Part shown: positions 1-63,878 of the stretch, piece after piece
Layout: each line of letters begins with the position of its first letter
How positions within the stretch are numbered: the first letter of the stretch is position 1
The notes under the pieces: generated by a model
Databases searched by the model: none
Told to the model about the DNA's origin: nothing
Seen by the model: the letters and a program-made list of their open reading frames with translations, nothing else
Origin: a virus
Direction: 5' to 3' (one strand)
IMG/VR virus record: IMGVR_UViG_3300026522_000001
Coordinates: 54,806 to 118,805 of that record
Length of the DNA: 64,000 nt
Position numbers and translations under genes: made by a program

Positions 1-565
1 TCTTTAGATTTTCCCATGCTTTATATTTATTTGGAAGTAATAGTTTTATTCCATCTCTGCCTTGTGAAACTTCTGACAAAAGACTTGTATCACACTCATC
101 ACTATTCTTAAATTTAAGTCTACTTATTTTCTTAAATTTCTGATTTCCATTTTCATCTAAAACAGGACTACCATCTACGTCTGTTTCTGGTACTTCTTCT
201 GTATAGAATGACATATAATCTCCTATGTCTGCTTTTGCTATTTTTAGATTATATTCTACATATTCTAGTGGGTCTATATCTAAAGTATATGCCATTAACT
301 TCTTTGCTCTTTTTAGTGCGGCCTGTATTTTAGGCTTTTTTATTTCCATATTTCCTAAAACACCTGCTGTTTTCTTATTCTTTACATTAAAAGCACTAAA
401 ATAAGAAATTGTAGGATTTGAATTAGAAAGATATAGCATAACAAAATCTTTTTGTTTATCAGTTAAATCTGAATCACCAAAAATATCATCATATATTTTT
501 TCTCTTAATTCTTTATTTTCTTCAAAAGAATTAACAACACGCTCTTCTTCTTTTTTCTTTGCCAT
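1..565 (-). CDS. terminase small subunit, N-terminal part (3' end lies beyond the window start)
   Basis: Open frame runs off the window edge. ATG at 565-563 follows AAAGGGGA. Translation MAKKKEEERV..DLTDKQKDFVMLYLSNSNPTISYFSAFNV..KKPKIQAAL has the LTxKQxxF..Y helix-turn-helix N-terminus typical of phage TerS. Confidence 0.6.
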   Translation of the reverse strand, partial: MAKKKEEERVVNSFEENKELREKIYDDIFGDSDLTDKQKDFVMLYLSNSNPTISYFSAFNVKNKKTAGVLGNMEIKKPKIQAALKRAKKLMAYTLDIDPLEYVEYNLKIAKADIGDYMSFYTEEVPETDVDGSPVLDENGNQKFKKISRLKFKNSDECDTSLLSEVSQGRDGIKLLLPNKYKAWENLK

Positions 566-1647: not shown

Positions 1648-3204
1648 TCAACAGTATTTGAAAATTTCTTCGACAACGTCATAGCGGGACTTATTCAGCT
1701 GTCTGCAAAAGGCTTTATATGGGTCAAGTTCATTACAACAAACCATATCTACAAGCTCTTTACTAAATCCACTCAAAAGAATTACACCATTTCTTGAGCT
1801 TTGAATTGGGACTGTACCATCATTATAACAAGAGACATTCCAAAAAATGAGTTTAGGAAGTTCATACCCACAATCCTTATACTTCTTCTCAATATTCTCA
1901 AATAATGTGTCATTTTCTTGTATATTTTGATTGCGTAATGGGAATCCAAATGCATCTGTATCACACATAGCAGTATTAAACTGCATATCAGAAATGATAA
2001 GAACATTCTTTGGCATATCTGCCTGTGTCGCATTACACTTCTTTGCTGTTTTTAGGATGAGGTCAAATACAGATTCAACATTAGTTGTACTACATTCTGT
2101 ATTTTTCATTAGCTTTTCTATATTGTCCCTTAATGTATTGCAGTTTACTGTAATCATCTTTGGGTTATTAGAAAATGCCATGATTTTATCTTTGAATACA
2201 CCTGTATTATTTTTTGCACAATACAGAGCAATTGAATCCCCAATTTCCATCGCTGAAACATTTTTTGATACATATGATAACATAGAGCCACTTCCATCTC
2301 TAACAACAAGCGTATCAGCAAATGTTTTTGGTTTCTTTTGAGATTCCCAAAGACTCTCTAGGGTATTGTCAACAGGTTTCATTCCAATGCCAAAAAAATT
2401 AGCATCTTTCTCATATGCATGAACTATGTCATACAAAAACATAGAATTAGCATTTATCTTATTTTCGCCACGAGCTACATCAATAAGATATTCATTTCTT
2501 CTAGCAAAATCGTGCTTAAGAAAAGAATCCTTATACTTGATATTTGCTAAAGATGGTACATGAGAGTAATCTACTTTATCCCATTTATTTGAACTTAACT
2601 TTACCTCTAAAACATCTAGCCCTTTTCTTAGTTTAGAAAGTGTTTTTCTATACTGTGAAGGAGACATTCTAAAATATTTTCTAAGTTCATTACCAACTGC
2701 TACTGTTTTCTTTGAAGATGTATTGATACTCGGCATCCATTTTGCTAAAAGACTGTATGGCTTTCCATTGGAATAATTATATAAGTCATCATAAAGCTGT
2801 TCTTGCAAAATCCCTGCAATATATATTTTTAAGTCATCATATTTTGTATTTGCAAAAAGATAAATATAGTCGTCCCATCTGCCAAATTCAGGCAAGTCAA
2901 CCGTGTAAATAAATCTATAGAAAATAGACATATCGATTTCTGTAAGATGAAGTAGCAACTTTCTAAAAGTATCTCTTTCACCCATTCCTTCTCTGACATC
3001 TCTCAAAAAGAGAAGGAATCTTAATGTCATAGCTTTATCTTGATAATATGCTTCATCAAAAAGAGAATAATCTATTGGATTTTCCCTAAATGATGAAACT
3101 TTATAGAAAAAATCTAAAAGTTTACTGCCTGTTGTAGCATAAGCTACTGCACCATTTTCTGTTGTTGTTTTTACATTGTTTTCAAGATTTTCAATAAAAT
3201 TCAT
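1648..3204 (-). CDS. DUF2828-like protein with C-terminal vWA/MIDAS domain (Ro60-like architecture)
   Basis: N-terminus TENGAVAYATTGSKLLDFFYK..LRFLLFLRDVREGMGERDTFRKL matches the DUF2828 signature as I recall it. VVRDGSGSM is a DxSxS MIDAS motif. Confidence 0.6.
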   Translation of the reverse strand: MNFIENLENNVKTTTENGAVAYATTGSKLLDFFYKVSSFRENPIDYSLFDEAYYQDKAMTLRFLLFLRDVREGMGERDTFRKLLLHLTEIDMSIFYRFIYTVDLPEFGRWDDYIYLFANTKYDDLKIYIAGILQEQLYDDLYNYSNGKPYSLLAKWMPSINTSSKKTVAVGNELRKYFRMSPSQYRKTLSKLRKGLDVLEVKLSSNKWDKVDYSHVPSLANIKYKDSFLKHDFARRNEYLIDVARGENKINANSMFLYDIVHAYEKDANFFGIGMKPVDNTLESLWESQKKPKTFADTLVVRDGSGSMLSYVSKNVSAMEIGDSIALYCAKNNTGVFKDKIMAFSNNPKMITVNCNTLRDNIEKLMKNTECSTTNVESVFDLILKTAKKCNATQADMPKNVLIISDMQFNTAMCDTDAFGFPLRNQNIQENDTLFENIEKKYKDCGYELPKLIFWNVSCYNDGTVPIQSSRNGVILLSGFSKELVDMVCCNELDPYKAFCRQLNKSRYDVVEEIFKYC

Positions 3205-3468
3205 CTTTTTTCTTCCTTCCTAGATACAAAATAATTATCCCATATTATTATTTATTATTGATTGCTGTATGTATCTAAATAAATTAAAATTATATTATAA
3301 ATACTTTAGGTTATGAATACCAAAACAAATCAATACAATTCCTGAAATTAGAATAAGACTAACTAGCATTATATATCTCCAAAAAGCAATTTGCTTTAAC
3401 ATCTATTGGTTTCATCATTTTGACTACTTATGCTATCCACCACGTAAAGGTTGATGTTACTGGATAAC

Positions 3469-3549
3469 TGCCCCTGACAGGATTCGAACCTGCACGTCTT
3501 TCGACAACGGATTTTGAATCCGCACTGTCTTCCATTCCAGCACAAGGGC
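3469..3549 (-). tRNA. tRNA-Leu (anticodon CAA), class II
   Basis: Acceptor gcccttg/caggggc, anticodon arm gcgga-ttcaaaa-tccgt, long variable arm tgtcgaaagacgt, T arm gcagg-ttcgaat-cctgt. CCA is not encoded. Confidence 0.85.
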
Positions 3550-3640
3550 AATAATTGGTTTTTTCGTTTTTTCCTTAACGACCTAGCTTTTCAGATGCGT
3601 TTTAGTGCTGGCCAGTCACTTCAAGCATAGTCCTATCCGC

Positions 3641-3760
3641 TTGACACTCCCCATGCCTAAAGGCAGGGGATTCTTGGTTCAACGACCAGTGCACCGCTTC
3701 CAAGGAATTGGTGTCTTACATGATTTCCCCAAGCGTGAATTCCCGTGTGTCCCACGGTAT
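3641..3760 (-). ncRNA. orphan TnpB omega-RNA-like scaffold, copy A
   Basis: 120 nt, about 85% identical to 59985-60104 with compensatory changes. It shares the blocks tgtaagac / gtgca.t / gttga.accaa.a / ggagt.tgtcaa with the 3' UTR of tnpB-2. It begins at the predicted TSS of a consensus promoter and ends in hairpin + TCAA. Confidence 0.6.
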
Positions 3761-3766
3761 GTTTAT

Positions 3767-3795
3767 ATTATAACACACCCTAAAACACATGTCAA
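3767..3795 (-). promoter_or_regulatory. consensus promoter for ncRNA copy A and tRNA-Leu
   Basis: Minus strand reads TTGACA tgtgttttagggtgtgt TATAAT. The predicted TSS falls on ...ATACCGTGGG, the first conserved bases of the repeat. Confidence 0.65.
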
Positions 3796-4120
3796 CACCT
3801 TTTCTGAAAAATTTTGACGAAAATTGAAAAATATATTCTGACCTCGTAGAAGCCGTTCTGAGAGTATTTTTCCCTCTATGAGTATAAATATACCTAAAAA
3901 TGCTTGGGAGCCCCTTAGTGGGCATCCTTCGAAACGACACAGGGTTTTATATTTATATTCTTTTCTCCAACCTGCACAAAAATAAAAATATTGGCCAAAA
4001 AATGAATTTTATATATATAGTGAAATTTTTCACAAGCTATACACTATTTTTTTAGGAGAGGGAGACAGCTAAAGGTAGTTCCCCTCATGGTATACATTTT
4101 ACACATTTGTCCATTTCGTC

Positions 4121-45803: not shown

Positions 45804-45839
45804 TTTACACTCCCCTAGCTGAAGATAGGGGTTTTACGG
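45804..45839 (-). repeat. member of the CCCC-stem-loop-GGGG(A) terminal-hairpin family
   Basis: Plus strand reads ccccta-gctgaaga-tagggg. The flanks ccgtaaaac / agtgtaaaa match the copies at 62440 and 60625. Confidence 0.5.
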
Positions 45840-45920
45840 TGGTTTGTATAATAACAACCTCACTTTCTTTCTTCCTCCCTTTCGATGATTCTACTATTGC
45901 ATATTGCATAGGATAGGACA

Positions 45921-54080: not shown

Positions 54081-54832
54081 CAAAGTCCTTTACTTTTTAA
54101 TTTTTCTTCAACAATAGTTCTTAATTCTTGTTTCTTTGCTTGTGGTAAATCTAAAGTATATTCATATTTCCTAACTTGCTCTTCTTTATTAGCAAATTCT
54201 TTAAATAATAATTTTTCTGCATAATATCTTTTATATACCGCATTTTTTAATTCTTTTTCATAACCTAGATGACACCTTTTTTCTTGTAATCTTATTTCAG
54301 AATCATACCTATCATGGTATTTATCATACCTTACACCAATAAAATTTGATGTATTTCTTTTCATATATGATTTATTTAATACATTTTGCCCTTGTGTACA
54401 AATACGTAAATTACATTTTCTATTATCAAAAGCATTACAATTAATATGGTCTACTACATAACCACTATCAATTTGTTCTCTCGTAATTCCAATAATAATC
54501 CATGATAAATCTTTTTGTGTTCCTTTGCTTGGTAATCCTGTTACTACATGGTCATGACTTATTCTCCATTTATGATATTTTACTTTTTCAATATCATCAA
54601 AGTCAATAATAAACTCACCATTTTTTACATTCTTTTGATTATATAAATTAAACGTAACAGTATTTGTATCATAGTTTATTGTGTAATCATTTAGGTCTGA
54701 ATTTGTTCTTTGAATATTATCTAAGAATTTACCATATTTTAATAATTGATGCATGTGTTTACTGCATAAGCAATAACCATATAAACTAATTTTCTTTTTT
54801 AATTCTCTACCACAAATATCACATTTGTACAT
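54074..54832 (-). CDS. HNH-AP2 homing endonuclease (intron-encoded)
   Basis: VVDHINCNAFDNRKCNLRICTQGQNVLN (HNH) and FIGVRYDKYHDRYDSEIRLQEKRCHLGY (AP2 domain). The stop overlaps the 3' splice site by 7 nt. Confidence 0.8.
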   Translation of the reverse strand: MYKCDICGRELKKKISLYGYCLCSKHMHQLLKYGKFLDNIQRTNSDLNDYTINYDTNTVTFNLYNQKNVKNGEFIIDFDDIEKVKYHKWRISHDHVVTGLPSKGTQKDLSWIIIGITREQIDSGYVVDHINCNAFDNRKCNLRICTQGQNVLNKSYMKRNTSNFIGVRYDKYHDRYDSEIRLQEKRCHLGYEKELKNAVYKRYYAEKLLFKEFANKEEQVRKYEYTLDLPQAKKQELRTIVEEKLKSKGLWQ

Positions 54833-59984: not shown

Positions 59985-60104
59985 TTGACACTCCCCACGG
60001 CTGAAGCCGGGGGATTCTTGGTTCGACAACCACTGCACCGCCTCCGAAGAATTGGCGTCTTACACGATTTCCCCAAGCGTGAATTCCTGTGTGTCCCACG
60101 GTAC
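59985..60104 (-). ncRNA. orphan TnpB omega-RNA-like scaffold, copy B
   Basis: Homolog of 3641-3760. Compensatory stems are cggc/gccg vs tgcc/ggca, and ttc[ttcg]gag vs ttc[cttg]gaa. It ends ggggagtgTCAA. Confidence 0.6.
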
Positions 60105-60111
60105 TAGAGAT

Positions 60112-60140
60112 ATTTATGCTACTTTGGGTTTCTCTTCCAA
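60112..60140 (-). promoter_or_regulatory. possible promoter for ncRNA copy B
   Basis: TTGGAA, a 17-nt spacer, then ATAAAT. This places the TSS on GTACCGTGGG, the same position as in copy A. Confidence 0.35.
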
Positions 60141-60148
60141 AGCGTGCT

Positions 60149-60616: not shown

Positions 60617-60760
60617 CTGAACCTCCCCATAGCTAAAGCTAGGGGATTCGTAAGAAGTTTAGTTTTTTATAACTCTTATTCTTACTGGTGTATTCAGTTC
60701 ACCTCTACTGTATAGTCCACTTAAGGACACAACATTACTTTTTCTTAATATGTTTAATGC
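60617..60760 (-). ncRNA. predicted omega-RNA / right-end region of tnpB-1 (bounds approximate)
   Basis: The 3' end of tnpB-1 plus 42 nt reads ..cagtaagaa-[stem]-cgaaTCCCC-tagc-ttta-gcta-t-GGGGAggTTCAG, the same architecture as copies A and B. Confidence 0.45.
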
Positions 60761-61900
60761 ACCATTTACATCTGCATTAAGTAGTATACCACTAGAAGTT
60801 TTATACAAGCCGCGCTTTATACGCTTTCCGCTAAAAATATGTTGTTTAGAATCACCATATACAGGAATCTCATCTTTATCCCAAAAACTTGCTTTTGATG
60901 TATAGCTTTCTTCTTGTTCTATCATATCAATGCCATATATTTTACATTGATATTCTAGCTTTTGTTGCAACTTATAAAAAGGCATTTGAACAAATATCTG
61001 ATTGTTTACCTTCCCTAAATTACTTTTCTGCTGAAATCCTTTATTATTACCAATAACAAGATTTCCTATATTATGCTCTAAACAGTAATTTATTATCTTT
61101 TTAGCTGTCTTACCTAGATAATCCCTTACACGATTTTCTCGTTTTCTAAGTAGTCTTGCTTGTCTTTTTGTTAGTGTCTTACTTAACTTCTGTTTGTCTT
61201 TAATGCTTTGCAATCTAGCATTTTCTTTATTATACCATTGGTTATAGCTTTTCAGCTTTTTCCCATCAAGTATAAAAGAGTCACCATCTGATGTTACACA
61301 AGTACAAAGATTGTTTACTCCTAAATCAATGGCTAGTGCTTTTGTTTTATCTAAATTTATTTTTGAAACATCTTTTACTTCATAAGTATAAACAATTTCA
61401 AAAAACCTAGCATTATATTTTGGGATTATTTTTATTTCTTTGACTTTCTTATCAGATAATATCGAAGGCATTTGAATATAAAATTTTTTATGTGTTTTTG
61501 CATATTCCCTTGAATATGGCATTTGAAACTTACCATTACGAATATTAATCTGTTGAATTATTAGCTGATTATATCCCTCTTTTGGTAAGTAATGCGGAAT
61601 ATTGACTTTATGAGCTACCTTCTTACTTTTTAAGCTACCAAAGAATGACTTAAACTCTGCATCAACCTTTCTCATAATCTGTTGTGCCATACTTGCTTGC
61701 AAAAGTTTATAATTATCACTTGTCTTTAGTGTCTTGTAGACCTCATTGTAATTTAGATAACTCTTATCACTGAAAAATTTCTGTCGTATCTCGTATAAAA
61801 CTTGATTTTTAAGATTTTTTGAAATACGACACTGTTCTTTAAGGACATTATATTCTTCCTTTGACAAATGGTTAAGCTGTTGTTTTACTACTAAGTACAT
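60659..61900 (-). CDS. tnpB: TnpB-family RNA-guided nuclease, variant without zinc-finger cysteines (tnpB-1)
   Basis: RuvC-I ALAIDLGVNNL, RuvC-II MIEQEESYTSKASFWD, RuvC-III LLNADVNGALNILRK. N-terminal OrfB helical region. Confidence 0.85.
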   Translation of the reverse strand: MYLVVKQQLNHLSKEEYNVLKEQCRISKNLKNQVLYEIRQKFFSDKSYLNYNEVYKTLKTSDNYKLLQASMAQQIMRKVDAEFKSFFGSLKSKKVAHKVNIPHYLPKEGYNQLIIQQINIRNGKFQMPYSREYAKTHKKFYIQMPSILSDKKVKEIKIIPKYNARFFEIVYTYEVKDVSKINLDKTKALAIDLGVNNLCTCVTSDGDSFILDGKKLKSYNQWYNKENARLQSIKDKQKLSKTLTKRQARLLRKRENRVRDYLGKTAKKIINYCLEHNIGNLVIGNNKGFQQKSNLGKVNNQIFVQMPFYKLQQKLEYQCKIYGIDMIEQEESYTSKASFWDKDEIPVYGDSKQHIFSGKRIKRGLYKTSSGILLNADVNGALNILRKSNVVSLSGLYSRGELNTPVRIRVIKN

Positions 61901-61926
61901 TTACAATTTCACCTCCTCTAGTAATT

Positions 61927-61956
61927 ATTATAATACTAAGTTAGTGAAATTGTCAA
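61927..61956 (-). promoter_or_regulatory. promoter upstream of tnpB-1
   Basis: TTGACA, an 18-nt spacer, then TATAAT, followed by the RBS AGGAGGTG. Confidence 0.5.
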
Positions 61957-61995
61957 GAAAAAATTATGTTGTTAGTAAGGTTGAATACATGAACC

Positions 61996-62260
61996 CTCTA
62001 ACTTTAACCTTCTTTAGGAGGTCTAGTTCATTACAAGTCGCTACACTCGTAACAGTTCTCTTATGAACTTCCTATCATTTCTGATAGGCACAGACTATAT
62101 CTTATCCATATCATATCTCTATGACTTAGGCGAAACCACTTCCATAGCCAATAGCTTGCTATGTACTTCCCTCAAGAGGAATAGTCGTTGAAGTTTCCCC
62201 TATTCGGGGCTTACCTGCTGATTACCAATTTTTGAAATAGGAATTAGGATTTAACCTTGT
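61996..62260 (-). ncRNA. group I intron 3' core-like sequence (IA2 type), bounds approximate
   Basis: agatatagtctgtgcc + covarying hairpin + gaagttcataagagaactgt, identical 20-mer to nrdD intron 2. caacgactattcctcttgagggaagta lies at 62164-62190. Confidence 0.6.
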
Positions 62261-62439
62261 CCCATCTACTAGATTTTTTCTGTTTTCACCGCATATCACG
62301 TTTAGGCTTGTTTCATCCTTACGTTGTAGCTCTAGTAGCTTTATGGTATTCCAGCAATTCAGTTTCTTTGTTGCATGGCTACACAAAACCATGTCTACAC
62401 ACCAATTTATTGATATGCTTACCTACTTATTCCCTTATA

Positions 62440-62470
62440 TCCCCATAGCTAAAACTAGGTGTTTTACGGG
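62440..62470 (-). repeat. decayed copy of the tnpB-1-type terminal hairpin
   Basis: cctagttttagctatgggga differs by 1 nt from cctagctttagctatgggga at 60625-60645. The 5' arm is eroded (acacc for tcccc). Confidence 0.5.
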
Positions 62471-62648
62471 AATTAGTGATAACACATTCCTCCTAATACT
62501 AGATTACTTAATAGCAATCCAAAAATTATTGTTTTTTCTACCTTGTTTTTCTTGCTTGCTCTCTTTGTCATTCTCAACGCCCTTTCTGCTTGACCTACAT
62601 TTATATTACCACATAAAACAAAAAATGGCAAGGGAATTTTGCTCTCTT

Positions 62649-62762
62649 TTGACATACTCCAGGTTGAACCCGCTGAATTTTGGTATCAACAAAGACTGCA
62701 CATCTCGCGATGGTCTTACATCTTCTTCTCCAATGGATGATGCCCCACCCATATTTATAGAT
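62649..62762 (-). ncRNA. predicted omega RNA of tnpB-2
   Basis: Starts at the tnpB-2 stop. It contains tgtaagac-catc[gcga]gatg-tgcagt..gttgataccaaaa..ggagtatgTCAA, collinear with orphan copies A and B. Confidence 0.55.
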
Positions 62763-63878
62763 TTATGCTGATAAAATTCTTAAACCTTCGTCTAAGATAT
62801 TCTGTGCAGCATTTCTATCCCTATCACAATGATGTCCACAAGAAGGACAAGTCCACTCACGAATAGATAAATCTTTTATTTTTGGATTTTGATAACCACA
62901 TTTATTACACAACTGACTTGATGGATAAAATCTGTCTATTTTAACAATCTTTGTGTTAAATTGTGGTGCTACATATTCAAGTATTCTCAAGAATTCACCA
63001 AATCCATAATCTCCAACTTTCTTGCCATGTCCTTTCTGCATCCATTTCATATTCAAATCTTCAAAACAAATAATAGAATATTTTTTGCAAAGTTCTCTTG
63101 CCAATTTCCAATGATAAGCATTACGCTGATTGGTTACCTTTCGATGTAACCTTGCTAAAGCAAGTTGTGCTTTATGCCTGTTATTTGAACGTAATCTTTT
63201 TGTAAAGAGATTTCGATTAGCTTTTGCAATAGCTTTTTGCTGTTTCTTGAAAAAACTTGGTGCAATTATGTCATCTTCTTTGTTTGGTGCTACAAGCATT
63301 TTACCCTTGAAGCCAAAATCAAATCCGATGCTTTTACCCAGTCTAGGTTTAATATTAACTTCTGGCGTTTCACAAACAAGATAAACATAGAAGTCTCCAC
63401 AAGAATCTTTCTTGACAGTAAGCATTTTAATCTTACCCTCTACTTCTCTTGACTTGAAAAACTTATATTTGTTCTTAGCAATCTTAATAGTATTATCTTT
63501 AATAGCGTTTTTACCTACTTCATCATAAGAAAATGAACAATACTTTCTATAAGGCTTAAATTTTGGCGGGGATGTTTTCTTTTTTCGTTTTAGATTTCCC
63601 CAAAATAATTTATAGCCATTATCTATTCTACACACGACATCATGAATAGCATGAGATTGTAAATCTTTCCAATAAGCATACTTATCTAGTTTTTTGAGCT
63701 TAGTAATATGCTTTTGCAGTCTAAATTTATTCAAAGATTTATGATAAAGTTTCCAATATCGCTTATGGAGAGCAATGCAATGATTATATATCTTGCAAGC
63801 TACCCAAAGCTGATATTGTAACTTCTTATTCTTCTTGGAATTATATAGCTTAAATTTATATGTTTTCACATTGCTCAC
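62763..63878 (-). CDS. tnpB: TnpB (IS200/IS605 OrfB) RNA-guided nuclease, classical type (tnpB-2)
   Basis: RuvC-I SIGFDFGFK, RuvC-II ICFEDLNMKWM, zinc finger CNKCG..CPSCG, RuvC-III DRDRNAAQNI. Confidence 0.9.
   Translation of the reverse strand: MSNVKTYKFKLYNSKKNKKLQYQLWVACKIYNHCIALHKRYWKLYHKSLNKFRLQKHITKLKKLDKYAYWKDLQSHAIHDVVCRIDNGYKLFWGNLKRKKKTSPPKFKPYRKYCSFSYDEVGKNAIKDNTIKIAKNKYKFFKSREVEGKIKMLTVKKDSCGDFYVYLVCETPEVNIKPRLGKSIGFDFGFKGKMLVAPNKEDDIIAPSFFKKQQKAIAKANRNLFTKRLRSNNRHKAQLALARLHRKVTNQRNAYHWKLARELCKKYSIICFEDLNMKWMQKGHGKKVGDYGFGEFLRILEYVAPQFNTKIVKIDRFYPSSQLCNKCGYQNPKIKDLSIREWTCPSCGHHCDRDRNAAQNILDEGLRILSA

Follow-up and report, generated by a model that had tools for sequence, protein, structure and literature searches.

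An orphan TnpB omega RNA between a phage promoter and tRNA-Leu: a probable relic of an IS605-family transposon

The window analysed here is a 64,000-nucleotide (nt) stretch of viral DNA (IMG/VR record IMGVR_UViG_3300026522_000001, positions 54,806 to 118,805), and on its minus strand a promoter, an element that we call copy A, a conserved flank and a tRNA-Leu gene lie one behind the other. The promoter (3767..3795) is of the extended sigma-70 type, with TTGACA at 3795-3790 and TATAAT at 3772-3767 separated by 17 nt of spacer, the last three of which are TGT. Copy A (3641..3759, 119 nt) has the form of a complete scaffold of an omega RNA, the guide RNA of the transposon-encoded nuclease TnpB, without a tnpB gene, and corresponds to the right-end module of an IS608-like element of the IS605 family of insertion sequences (IS). 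The stretch that follows (3551..3640) is the flank of the insertion and the 3' domain of a leader RNA that we call Z; it includes a 20-mer (3621-3640) which an earlier note on this DNA had taken for a guide. tRNA-Leu(CAA) comes next (3468..3550; ARAGORN, with 50.2 bits for the Rfam tRNA family), in the same orientation as copy A and 90 nt after the TCAA in which copy A ends. The earlier note had seen in this locus an omega-RNA-like gene with a consensus promoter, co-transcribed with a tRNA 91 nt downstream, and had proposed a phage-encoded targeting module that had not been described. Most of the features it listed are indeed there; we argue that copy A is probably the remnant of a transposon, stranded behind a promoter that is older than itself.

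Copy A reads TACCGTGGGACACACGGGAAT...GAATCCCCTGCCTTTAGGCATGGGGAGTGTCAA, with the 3' terminus GGGGAGTGTCAA. Nine tnpB-linked omega RNAs, chosen on purpose so as not to include the nearest relatives of copy A (loci L002 and L003), were the basis of a covariance model, R1, against which copy A scores 82.3 bits (E ~3e-19) over model positions 1-126, the full length, which is mid-range among 95 copies. RNAalifold predicts 38 pairs for the R1 set, 19 of them with compensatory changes. Across the 95 copies (84 distinct), in an alignment that was fitted to R1 and whose pairing figures consequently favour the structure, 90.4% of cells are paired and 29 of the 38 pairs have changes on both sides, as against 35-44% paired in controls in which the pairing partner was slid sideways. 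Copy A itself forms 32 of the 38 as standard pairs, the same number as a second copy in the window (copy B, below) and within the range of the tnpB-linked copies. Among the matches listed its closest omega RNAs, 92-93% identical, are tnpB-linked and come from Mitsuokella and from a Veillonellaceae genome. With the R1 score over the full length, the cautious "omega-RNA-like" of the earlier note can be strengthened to a true, orphan omega RNA.

The right end of copy A points the same way. An imperfect hairpin with a bulged U (3648..3669, minus strand) is preceded by GAAT and followed by AGTGTCAA, such that the end reads GAAT-CCCCTGCCTTTAGGCATGGGG-AGTGTCAA|GCGG, and the left-end hairpins of this IS type are near-identical to it. 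The combination of GAAT, bulged hairpin and AGTGTCAA we take to be the signature that the IS608-type transposase TnpA recognises and cleaves. The motif CCCCNNNCTTNAGNNNNGGGGA occurs three times in the window, with none expected. Homology to all other copies stops at TCAA, and homology to the sister phages described below resumes directly after it. No Rfam family was found for copy A at the gathering and E-value thresholds, and by megablast neither the region nor 20 kb of the window matched INPHARED phages. By model score, pairing and end structure, copy A is a genuine omega RNA and right-end module, orphaned and structurally intact.

The promoter in front of it is likewise as the earlier note had it: a perfect TTGACA-17-TATAAT, which scores 12/12 and in addition has an extended -10 (TTGACA-17-TGnTATAAT). 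The window holds seven perfect TTGACA-16..18-TATAAT sites where Markov-1 simulations lead one to expect 0.17, which implies that these are real phage promoters and that the one at copy A is among the phage's strong ones; tgtgtTATAATa is common to several of the seven. The start predicted about 7 nt past the -10, at ~3760, falls within 1-2 nt of the first conserved base of the element (T3759/A3758), again in agreement with that note. Co-transcription with the tRNA fits the position of the two on one strand, and a terminator scan of 3551-3640 predicts no terminator between them. It is very probable that the copy-A scaffold is transcribed at the head of the tRNA-Leu precursor, as its 5' leader, from which RNase P would free it.

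The promoter does not, on the other hand, seem to belong to the element. Two sister phages in IMG/VR, L086 and L087, have a DUF2828 protein 92% and 88% identical to that of the window phage and syntenic DNA of 84-94% identity. In both, the promoter is kept with identical -35 and -10 boxes, TATAAT-7nt-TACCGTG again forms the junction, and the flank, GC(G/A)G...GGACTATGCTTGAAGTGACTGG, is retained as far as tRNA-Leu. Neither has the omega RNA (R1 finds no match in them); where the window phage has it they hold a 75-nt element, X, ending in CCCTTGAT. The promoter at copy A is by this comparison an ancestral, conserved tRNA-Leu leader promoter that is not dedicated to the element, and here we depart from the earlier note. 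We considered X as an omega RNA in its own right and rejected it: R1 gives 1.6 bits with filters off, nhmmer gives nothing, and blastn-short against the window and the loci fetched until then gives exact matches of at most 14 nt, the best with an E-value of 0.11. An exact 22-mer from X was matched only in the two sister contigs.

What X and the flank are becomes apparent from other phages. A scan of Joint Genome Institute (JGI) metagenomes anchored on the flank finds it in tRNA arrays of unrelated phages, in each case immediately before a tRNA; in all, this sequence precedes tRNAs in L086, L087 and L094-L098. It is the 3' end of RNA Z, which measures ~330 nt in L095-L098 (among them L095:4440-4756(+) and L097:427-745(-)), is shorter in L094, and has a ~165-nt mini form in the sister phages (L086:1539-1704, L087:498-663): X together with the flank aligns to Z as a shortened form of it, mini-Z, including the ACCGTGAA at the 5' end of Z. 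The 3' ~90 nt of Z are nearly invariant across contigs that are otherwise unrelated, and its core helices according to RNAalifold are CCU/AGG, AGC/GCU, GAUGYG/CRCAUC and a terminal hairpin, of which the last two covary. Neither X nor Z has an Rfam family at the gathering and E-value thresholds. Judged by this conservation and covariation, Z is a conserved, unannotated structured phage RNA that lies 5' of tRNAs, and the IS right end in the window interrupts its GAUGYG strand (TTGAT|GCGG).

This bears directly on the 20-mer that follows TCAA. The earlier note had called it unique and had placed it where a TnpB guide would sit; it is unique within the window, but it is not unique DNA, since it forms part of an RNA conserved in other phages. 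The 20-mer has no match in IMG/VR. Its 16-mer, allowing up to 3 mismatches, finds in the window besides itself one 3-mismatch match (0.10 expected in shuffles) with no supporting context. A target search with the 16-20-mer gave no exact target next to a transposon-adjacent motif (TAM) in the window, in IMG/VR or in the JGI loci carrying the flank. We read the supposed guide as ordinary insertion-site flank, the start of the 3' domain of Z.

The type of TnpB to which copy A belongs can be approached through the other transposon genes in the window, all of them on the minus strand. Copy B (59985..60103; R1 83.2 bits) has the same omega-RNA type, differs from copy A by ~10% with compensatory changes in two stems, and adjoins the last ~45 nt of a tnpB open reading frame (ORF; 60104-60148). 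It has one mismatch in ~165 nt, ORF tail included, relative to the intact IS of loci L001 and L003, and this near-identity marks it as a 5'-truncated IS remnant independent of copy A. Two complete tnpB genes lie beyond it. One, TnpB-413 (413 aa, 60659-61900, identified with Pfam), is the nearest to copy A at a distance of 56.9 kb, much as the earlier note had stated (no tnpB nearby, the nearest about 56 kb away), and has no BLASTP similarity to the copy-A type of TnpB. It is held in an IStron (60618..62480) with a left-end hairpin (62440-62480) and a right-end hairpin with GGTTCAG (60618-60645), a group I intron (62071-62422; RF00028, Intron_gpI, 64.3 bits, E 1.8e-15, a match that the scan of the whole window at gathering thresholds had missed) and a perfect promoter motif (61927-61956). 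We also asked whether the hairpin at 62440-62480 and copy B could be opposite termini of a single IS, and rejected this because the hairpin belongs to the IStron as its left end. The other gene, tnpB-2 (62763-63878), encodes the 371-aa TnpB-371 with a Pfam OrfB_IS605 and a Cas12f1-like TNB domain, and is followed by an omega RNA and a right end of its own, which occupy 62649-62753 and end in GGAGTATGTCAA; no database record was found for the exact TnpB-371 product.

It was the 3' untranslated region (UTR) of tnpB-2 with which the earlier note had found copy A collinear, and to whose type it had assigned the element. The collinearity holds for a core consisting of a UUGG/CCAA helix, UGUAAGAC, an apical stem, GUGCAG and GUUGA, and it does not extend to the 5' hairpin and the terminal hairpin of copy A, which the tnpB-2 omega RNA lacks. 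The assignment itself is probably wrong: R1 gives the tnpB-2 UTR 15.7 bits versus 82.3 for copy A, and TnpB-371 is 32% identical to the L003-type TnpB, which elsewhere carries the omega-RNA type of copy A. The cognate TnpB of copy A is, as far as these comparisons tell, of the IS608-like IS605 type and not tnpB-2. A tnpB of this type was found neither in the window nor in the 16 kb past the window ends, an inspection that covers ~80 kb of the ~118.7-kb genome; no tnpA was found in the window, and no tnpB stands next to copy A or copy B.

A further trace of IS608-like elements is a solo hairpin at 45804-45850 (minus strand), which has a 5' flank of the left-end type (CCGTAAAAC) and a 3' tail of the right-end type (GGGGAGTGTAAA). 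It lies ~110 nt downstream of a tRNA-Gln, just upstream of a ribosome-binding site and an ATG, and may be a minimal relic or a scar of fused ends.

The IS family itself is widespread. A search pattern made from the blocks common to copy A, copy B and the TnpB-371 UTR led to two IMG/VR contigs, and in both of them a tnpB stop codon immediately precedes the same element. L001 and L003 contain the complete IS: a left-end hairpin is followed by a Y1 tnpA of 136 aa, a tnpB of 374 aa and the omega RNA, and GTGTCAA closes the right end. In L002 the same omega-RNA type stands directly 3' of tnpB, as it also does in many bacterial genomes. Relatives of the L003-type TnpB in IMG/VR make up 39 loci, and their 3' regions form one alignable family. 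In bacterial genomes the IS type was found in 88 stretches, and the bacterial results given here rest on the 80 of these that were listed: among them it occurs mostly in Selenomonas ruminantium, with many copies per genome, and in Mitsuokella, Anaerovibrio, Megasphaera and rumen or gut Clostridia. By this distribution of matches, the IS type of copy A is abundant in rumen and gut Selenomonadaceae and Veillonellaceae and in their phages. Its left-end flanks show the target motif TTAT(C) or TTTAT.

Copies without a tnpB are common in this family. With the family's 5' motif as the search key, 12 of 39 evaluable viral loci lack the gene, as do ~14 of 53 evaluable bacterial copies among those listed, which puts the share at roughly a quarter to a third, and the orphan state of copy A is in itself not unusual. 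Five of the 12 viral orphans resemble palindrome-associated transposable elements (PATEs) in having a left-end hairpin, a short linker and an omega RNA; the rest have no left end. Elements without tnpB that encode omega RNAs for use in trans are also mentioned by Meers et al. (PMC10055086), and the statement that such a module had not been described was thus too strong. What is particular to copy A is its exact fusion to a consensus promoter and its tRNA context: the pattern of a promoter fused to an omega RNA has no match in IMG/VR, and a promoter-like site no more than 50 nt away is present at only 2 of the 12 other orphans. Elements of the family are also seen in tRNA clusters of other phages (L059:114-313(-); L057/L018; L048; L062). 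In L059 the right end directly adjoins tRNA-Leu(TAG) at the first base of that gene, and the left end follows another tRNA; in L018/L057 half a tRNA, the 3' half, makes up the flank of the right end.

How did copy A come to lie behind this promoter? We consider it probable that copy A is a transposon relic, a decayed IS605-family right end stranded behind the tRNA-Leu leader promoter. This reading builds on the family membership and structural integrity of copy A, on the absence of tnpB and of the left end, on the promoter and flank in the sister phages and on the identity of the flank with Z. The order of events that we infer would be as follows. In the ancestral phage the strong promoter would have led into a short structured leader, mini-Z, and then into tRNA-Leu. 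An IS would have transposed into mini-Z immediately 3' of ...CCCTTGAT, that is, after TTGAT. Mini-Z and the omega RNA each have a TACCGTG at the 5' end; deletion or recombination between these two sequences would then have taken out the body of mini-Z together with tnpA, tnpB and the left end of the IS, and would have put the start site of the promoter on the first base of the omega RNA. Carried out on paper, these steps yield exactly the sequence of the window. A recombination junction inside the shared TACCGTG would set the start site on the first conserved base with no need for selection, and seven-base microhomologies are nothing rare between an ~80-nt leader and an IS of ~1.8 kb (about 9 expected by chance). 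Upstream of copy A we found neither a left-end hairpin nor a TTAT(C) motif, and without a left end TnpA cannot move it. The earlier note had offered as one of its two readings a decayed PATE-like element that kept its expression; the decay is close to our conclusion, while the likeness to a PATE falls with the missing left end. The transcript of such a relic would presumably have no function.

Several observations speak against this account and have to be set beside it. Copy A is as well paired as the tnpB-linked copies. At paired sites it has two substitutions of its own, each of which turns a G.U into an A-U pair, although G.U pairs account for only 5 of 38 G's. Such changes are weakly suggestive of continued structural constraint, but they could equally predate the loss of tnpB. 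The insertion site that we deduce from the sister phages, TTGAT, is one base off TTAT(C)/TTTAT, which means that the insertion was near-cognate or that the ancestor differed at this position. That a deletion should end on precisely the base with which the omega RNA begins, and at the same time keep the spacing from -10 to start, is a priori unlikely, and for this reason the arrangement could have been retained by selection. Besides TACCGTG, mini-Z and the omega RNA also share CGGGAAT. Finally, ~38 kb of the phage genome lie outside the stretch inspected for a cognate tnpB.

In a rival reading, copy A would be a functional stand-alone guide RNA, loaded in trans by TnpB-371 or by a cognate TnpB of the host, and would cut the uninterrupted Z or mini-Z allele of co-infecting sister phages. 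The outcome could be homing or exclusion, by analogy with the phage homing endonucleases of tRNA regions. An intact scaffold behind a consensus promoter is what such a role calls for; omega RNAs work in trans experimentally, and those borne by PATEs are presumed to be used in trans (PMC10055086). The omega-RNA core of TnpB-371 shares UGUAAGAC, GUGCAG, GUUGA and the UUGG/CCAA helix with copy A, its RuvC-type acidic residues appear by eye to be kept in an alignment to the L003 TnpB, and IS with an intact tnpB are present in multiple copies in Selenomonas, Mitsuokella, Anaerovibrio and Megasphaera, which are plausible host lineages. The sister alleles would be the "empty sites" that TnpB guides normally target: L087 has TTGAT followed by GCGGACAGGACTATGC, with one mismatch to the guide, and L086 has TTGAT followed by GCAGGTAGG..., with two. 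Candidate targets would be GCGGATAGGACTATGC flanked by TTTAT or TTGAT, and GCGGATAGGACTATGCTTGA after TTTAT, TTATC or TTGAT, with GCGGACAGG... and GCAGGTAGG... as the sister-phage variants. There is also a precedent in the phage-encoded orphan viral single-guide RNAs (vsgRNAs) that hijack host Cas9 (bioRxiv 10.64898/2026.06.01.729453). Nevertheless we hold this role to be unlikely. The cognate tnpB was not seen in the ~80 kb inspected, and TnpB-371 is a distant relative of the cognate type with an omega RNA that lacks the 5' and terminal hairpins. An exact target is absent from the window, IMG/VR and the flank-carrying JGI loci; the sister alleles have a non-cognate TAM and place their mismatches in the TAM-proximal seed. 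The pattern of a promoter fused to an omega RNA has no match in IMG/VR, few other orphans have any promoter-like site close by, and since promoter and flank are older than the element, the arrangement need not have evolved for the expression of a guide. We are still more sceptical of the wider proposition that copy A is a nuclease-less omega RNA kept under one of the phage's strongest promoters, with a guide that agrees with the intact leader allele of sister phages except at seed and TAM, and that on a host or phage TnpB it cuts sibling phages or ties up the host nuclease.

A role without guided cleavage appears very unlikely. The scaffold might act as a decoy that sequesters the TnpB of the host, or as a 5' leader of stable structure that stands in for the lost 5' part of Z when the tRNA-Leu precursor is processed or stabilised. 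As to the decoy, we know of no reason for a phage to neutralise host TnpB. Copy A does replace the 5' half of Z at exactly the same position in the transcript, and it is highly structured and well paired; yet the insertion destroys two helices of Z (CCU/AGG-AGC/GCU and GAUGYG/CRCAUC), which is not what mimicry would do. Sequestration as such has a parallel in the vsgRNAs, which inhibit Cas9 partly by this means (bioRxiv 10.64898/2026.06.01.729453). That copy A is instead a mobile, non-autonomous PATE which transposed here as a unit we regard as hardly credible. PATE-like copies of the same family do exist, with a left-end hairpin, a linker of ~25-40 nt and the omega RNA with its right end (L054, L055, L063, L068, L072 and several bacterial ones). 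At copy A the missing left-end hairpin refutes such an origin: the element begins right behind the conserved phage promoter, and the 5' junction lies in sequence shared with the ancestral leader and not at a TAM.

Set against known systems, copy A is closest to the TnpB omega RNA, or right-end element RNA (reRNA), of the IS608-like subgroup of IS200/IS605. It belongs to the same covariance-model family, has the same five helices, keeps the single-stranded motifs GGAAU, UGUAAG, GUGCAG and GUUGAA, and ends at an IS right end (GAAT, bulged hairpin, N4-TCAA) from which it reads into the flank. It differs in having no upstream tnpB, no left end and no tnpA, in its place within a tRNA leader, and in a 5' end that would be set by a phage promoter and not by processing of a tnpB mRNA. 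With PATEs (Meers et al., PMC10055086; Zedaveinyte et al., bioRxiv 10.1101/2023.11.20.567912) it shares the nature of a protein-less IS605 derivative that keeps omega RNA and right end, and any activity of it would need TnpB in trans; PATEs, however, retain the two ends and with them the ability to be moved by TnpA, whereas copy A has lost its left end and is fixed. Like the vsgRNAs of Cas9 (bioRxiv 10.64898/2026.06.01.729453), it is a phage orphan guide-RNA gene without a nuclease of its own which could act on a nuclease of the host. Its effector would be TnpB rather than Cas9, and while vsgRNAs have demonstrated targets and an anti-defence function, copy A has no exact target in the window, IMG/VR or the flank-carrying JGI loci and has an ordinary, probable origin in transposon decay. 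IStrons, which combine a group I intron with an IS605 or IS607 tnpB and an omega RNA, are represented in the same phage with near-identical end hairpins, but copy A has neither intron nor tnpB, and TnpB-413 of the IStron is unrelated by BLASTP to the cognate TnpB.

The surroundings of tRNA-Leu have further features of their own. The tRNA, in which CCA is not encoded, is strongly unlike in sequence to the tRNA-Leu(CAA) of the sister phages (L086:1706-1792, L087:666-755), while the DNA on either side is 85-93% identical; a divergent tRNA within conserved flanks suggests a cassette-like turnover of the tRNA as well as of its leader. One base past its 3' end begins a weak match to RF02682, the HDV-like (hepatitis delta virus-like) ribozyme of F. 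prausnitzii, which makes the segment at 3411..3468 (minus strand) a candidate ribozyme of the theta type, with 22.2 bits, below the gathering score of 44, and an E-value of 0.07. Theta ribozymes have been reported to adjoin phage tRNAs (PMC10879173), and the position of the candidate fits. Further on, between tRNA-Leu and a cluster of tRNA-Arg, tRNA-Met and tRNA-Gly, a 518-aa protein with DUF2828, DUF7788 and a weak von Willebrand factor A (vWA) domain is encoded at 1648-3204 (minus strand); it is the protein that is kept in the sister phages. We considered it as a Ro60-like partner of a Y-RNA-like leader and dropped the idea: its sequence matches none in the PDB, and in other phages Z has no DUF2828 gene in its neighbourhood. 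Upstream of the copy-A promoter a repeat of ~84 nt (~3850-3930) recurs at 32936-33019, near the promoter at 32825-32853. The same phage also has an NrdD split by HNH/NUMOD4 genes, a Mom-like gene, a Tad3-like gene and, just past the window end, an RVT_1 reverse-transcriptase gene.

Copy A thus would offer a well-resolved case of the decay of an IS605-family element in a phage genome, in which the relic is expressed by accident. RNA Z, the ribozyme candidate 3' of tRNA-Leu and the IStron are possibly more interesting than copy A itself. Should it turn out, against our expectation, that the phage has kept copy A as a guide on the TnpB of its host or on its own, it would be the TnpB counterpart of the phage-encoded single-guide RNAs of Cas9. 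Even as a relic, the combination of a strong promoter, an intact scaffold and an RNase P site at the tRNA amounts to a natural expression cassette for a single guide, and this layout makes the locus a reasonable candidate for the trans-loading of orphan omega RNAs. Cassettes of this kind may be the raw material from which domesticated guide RNAs arise, as with the guides of TldR or the single-guide RNAs of phages.

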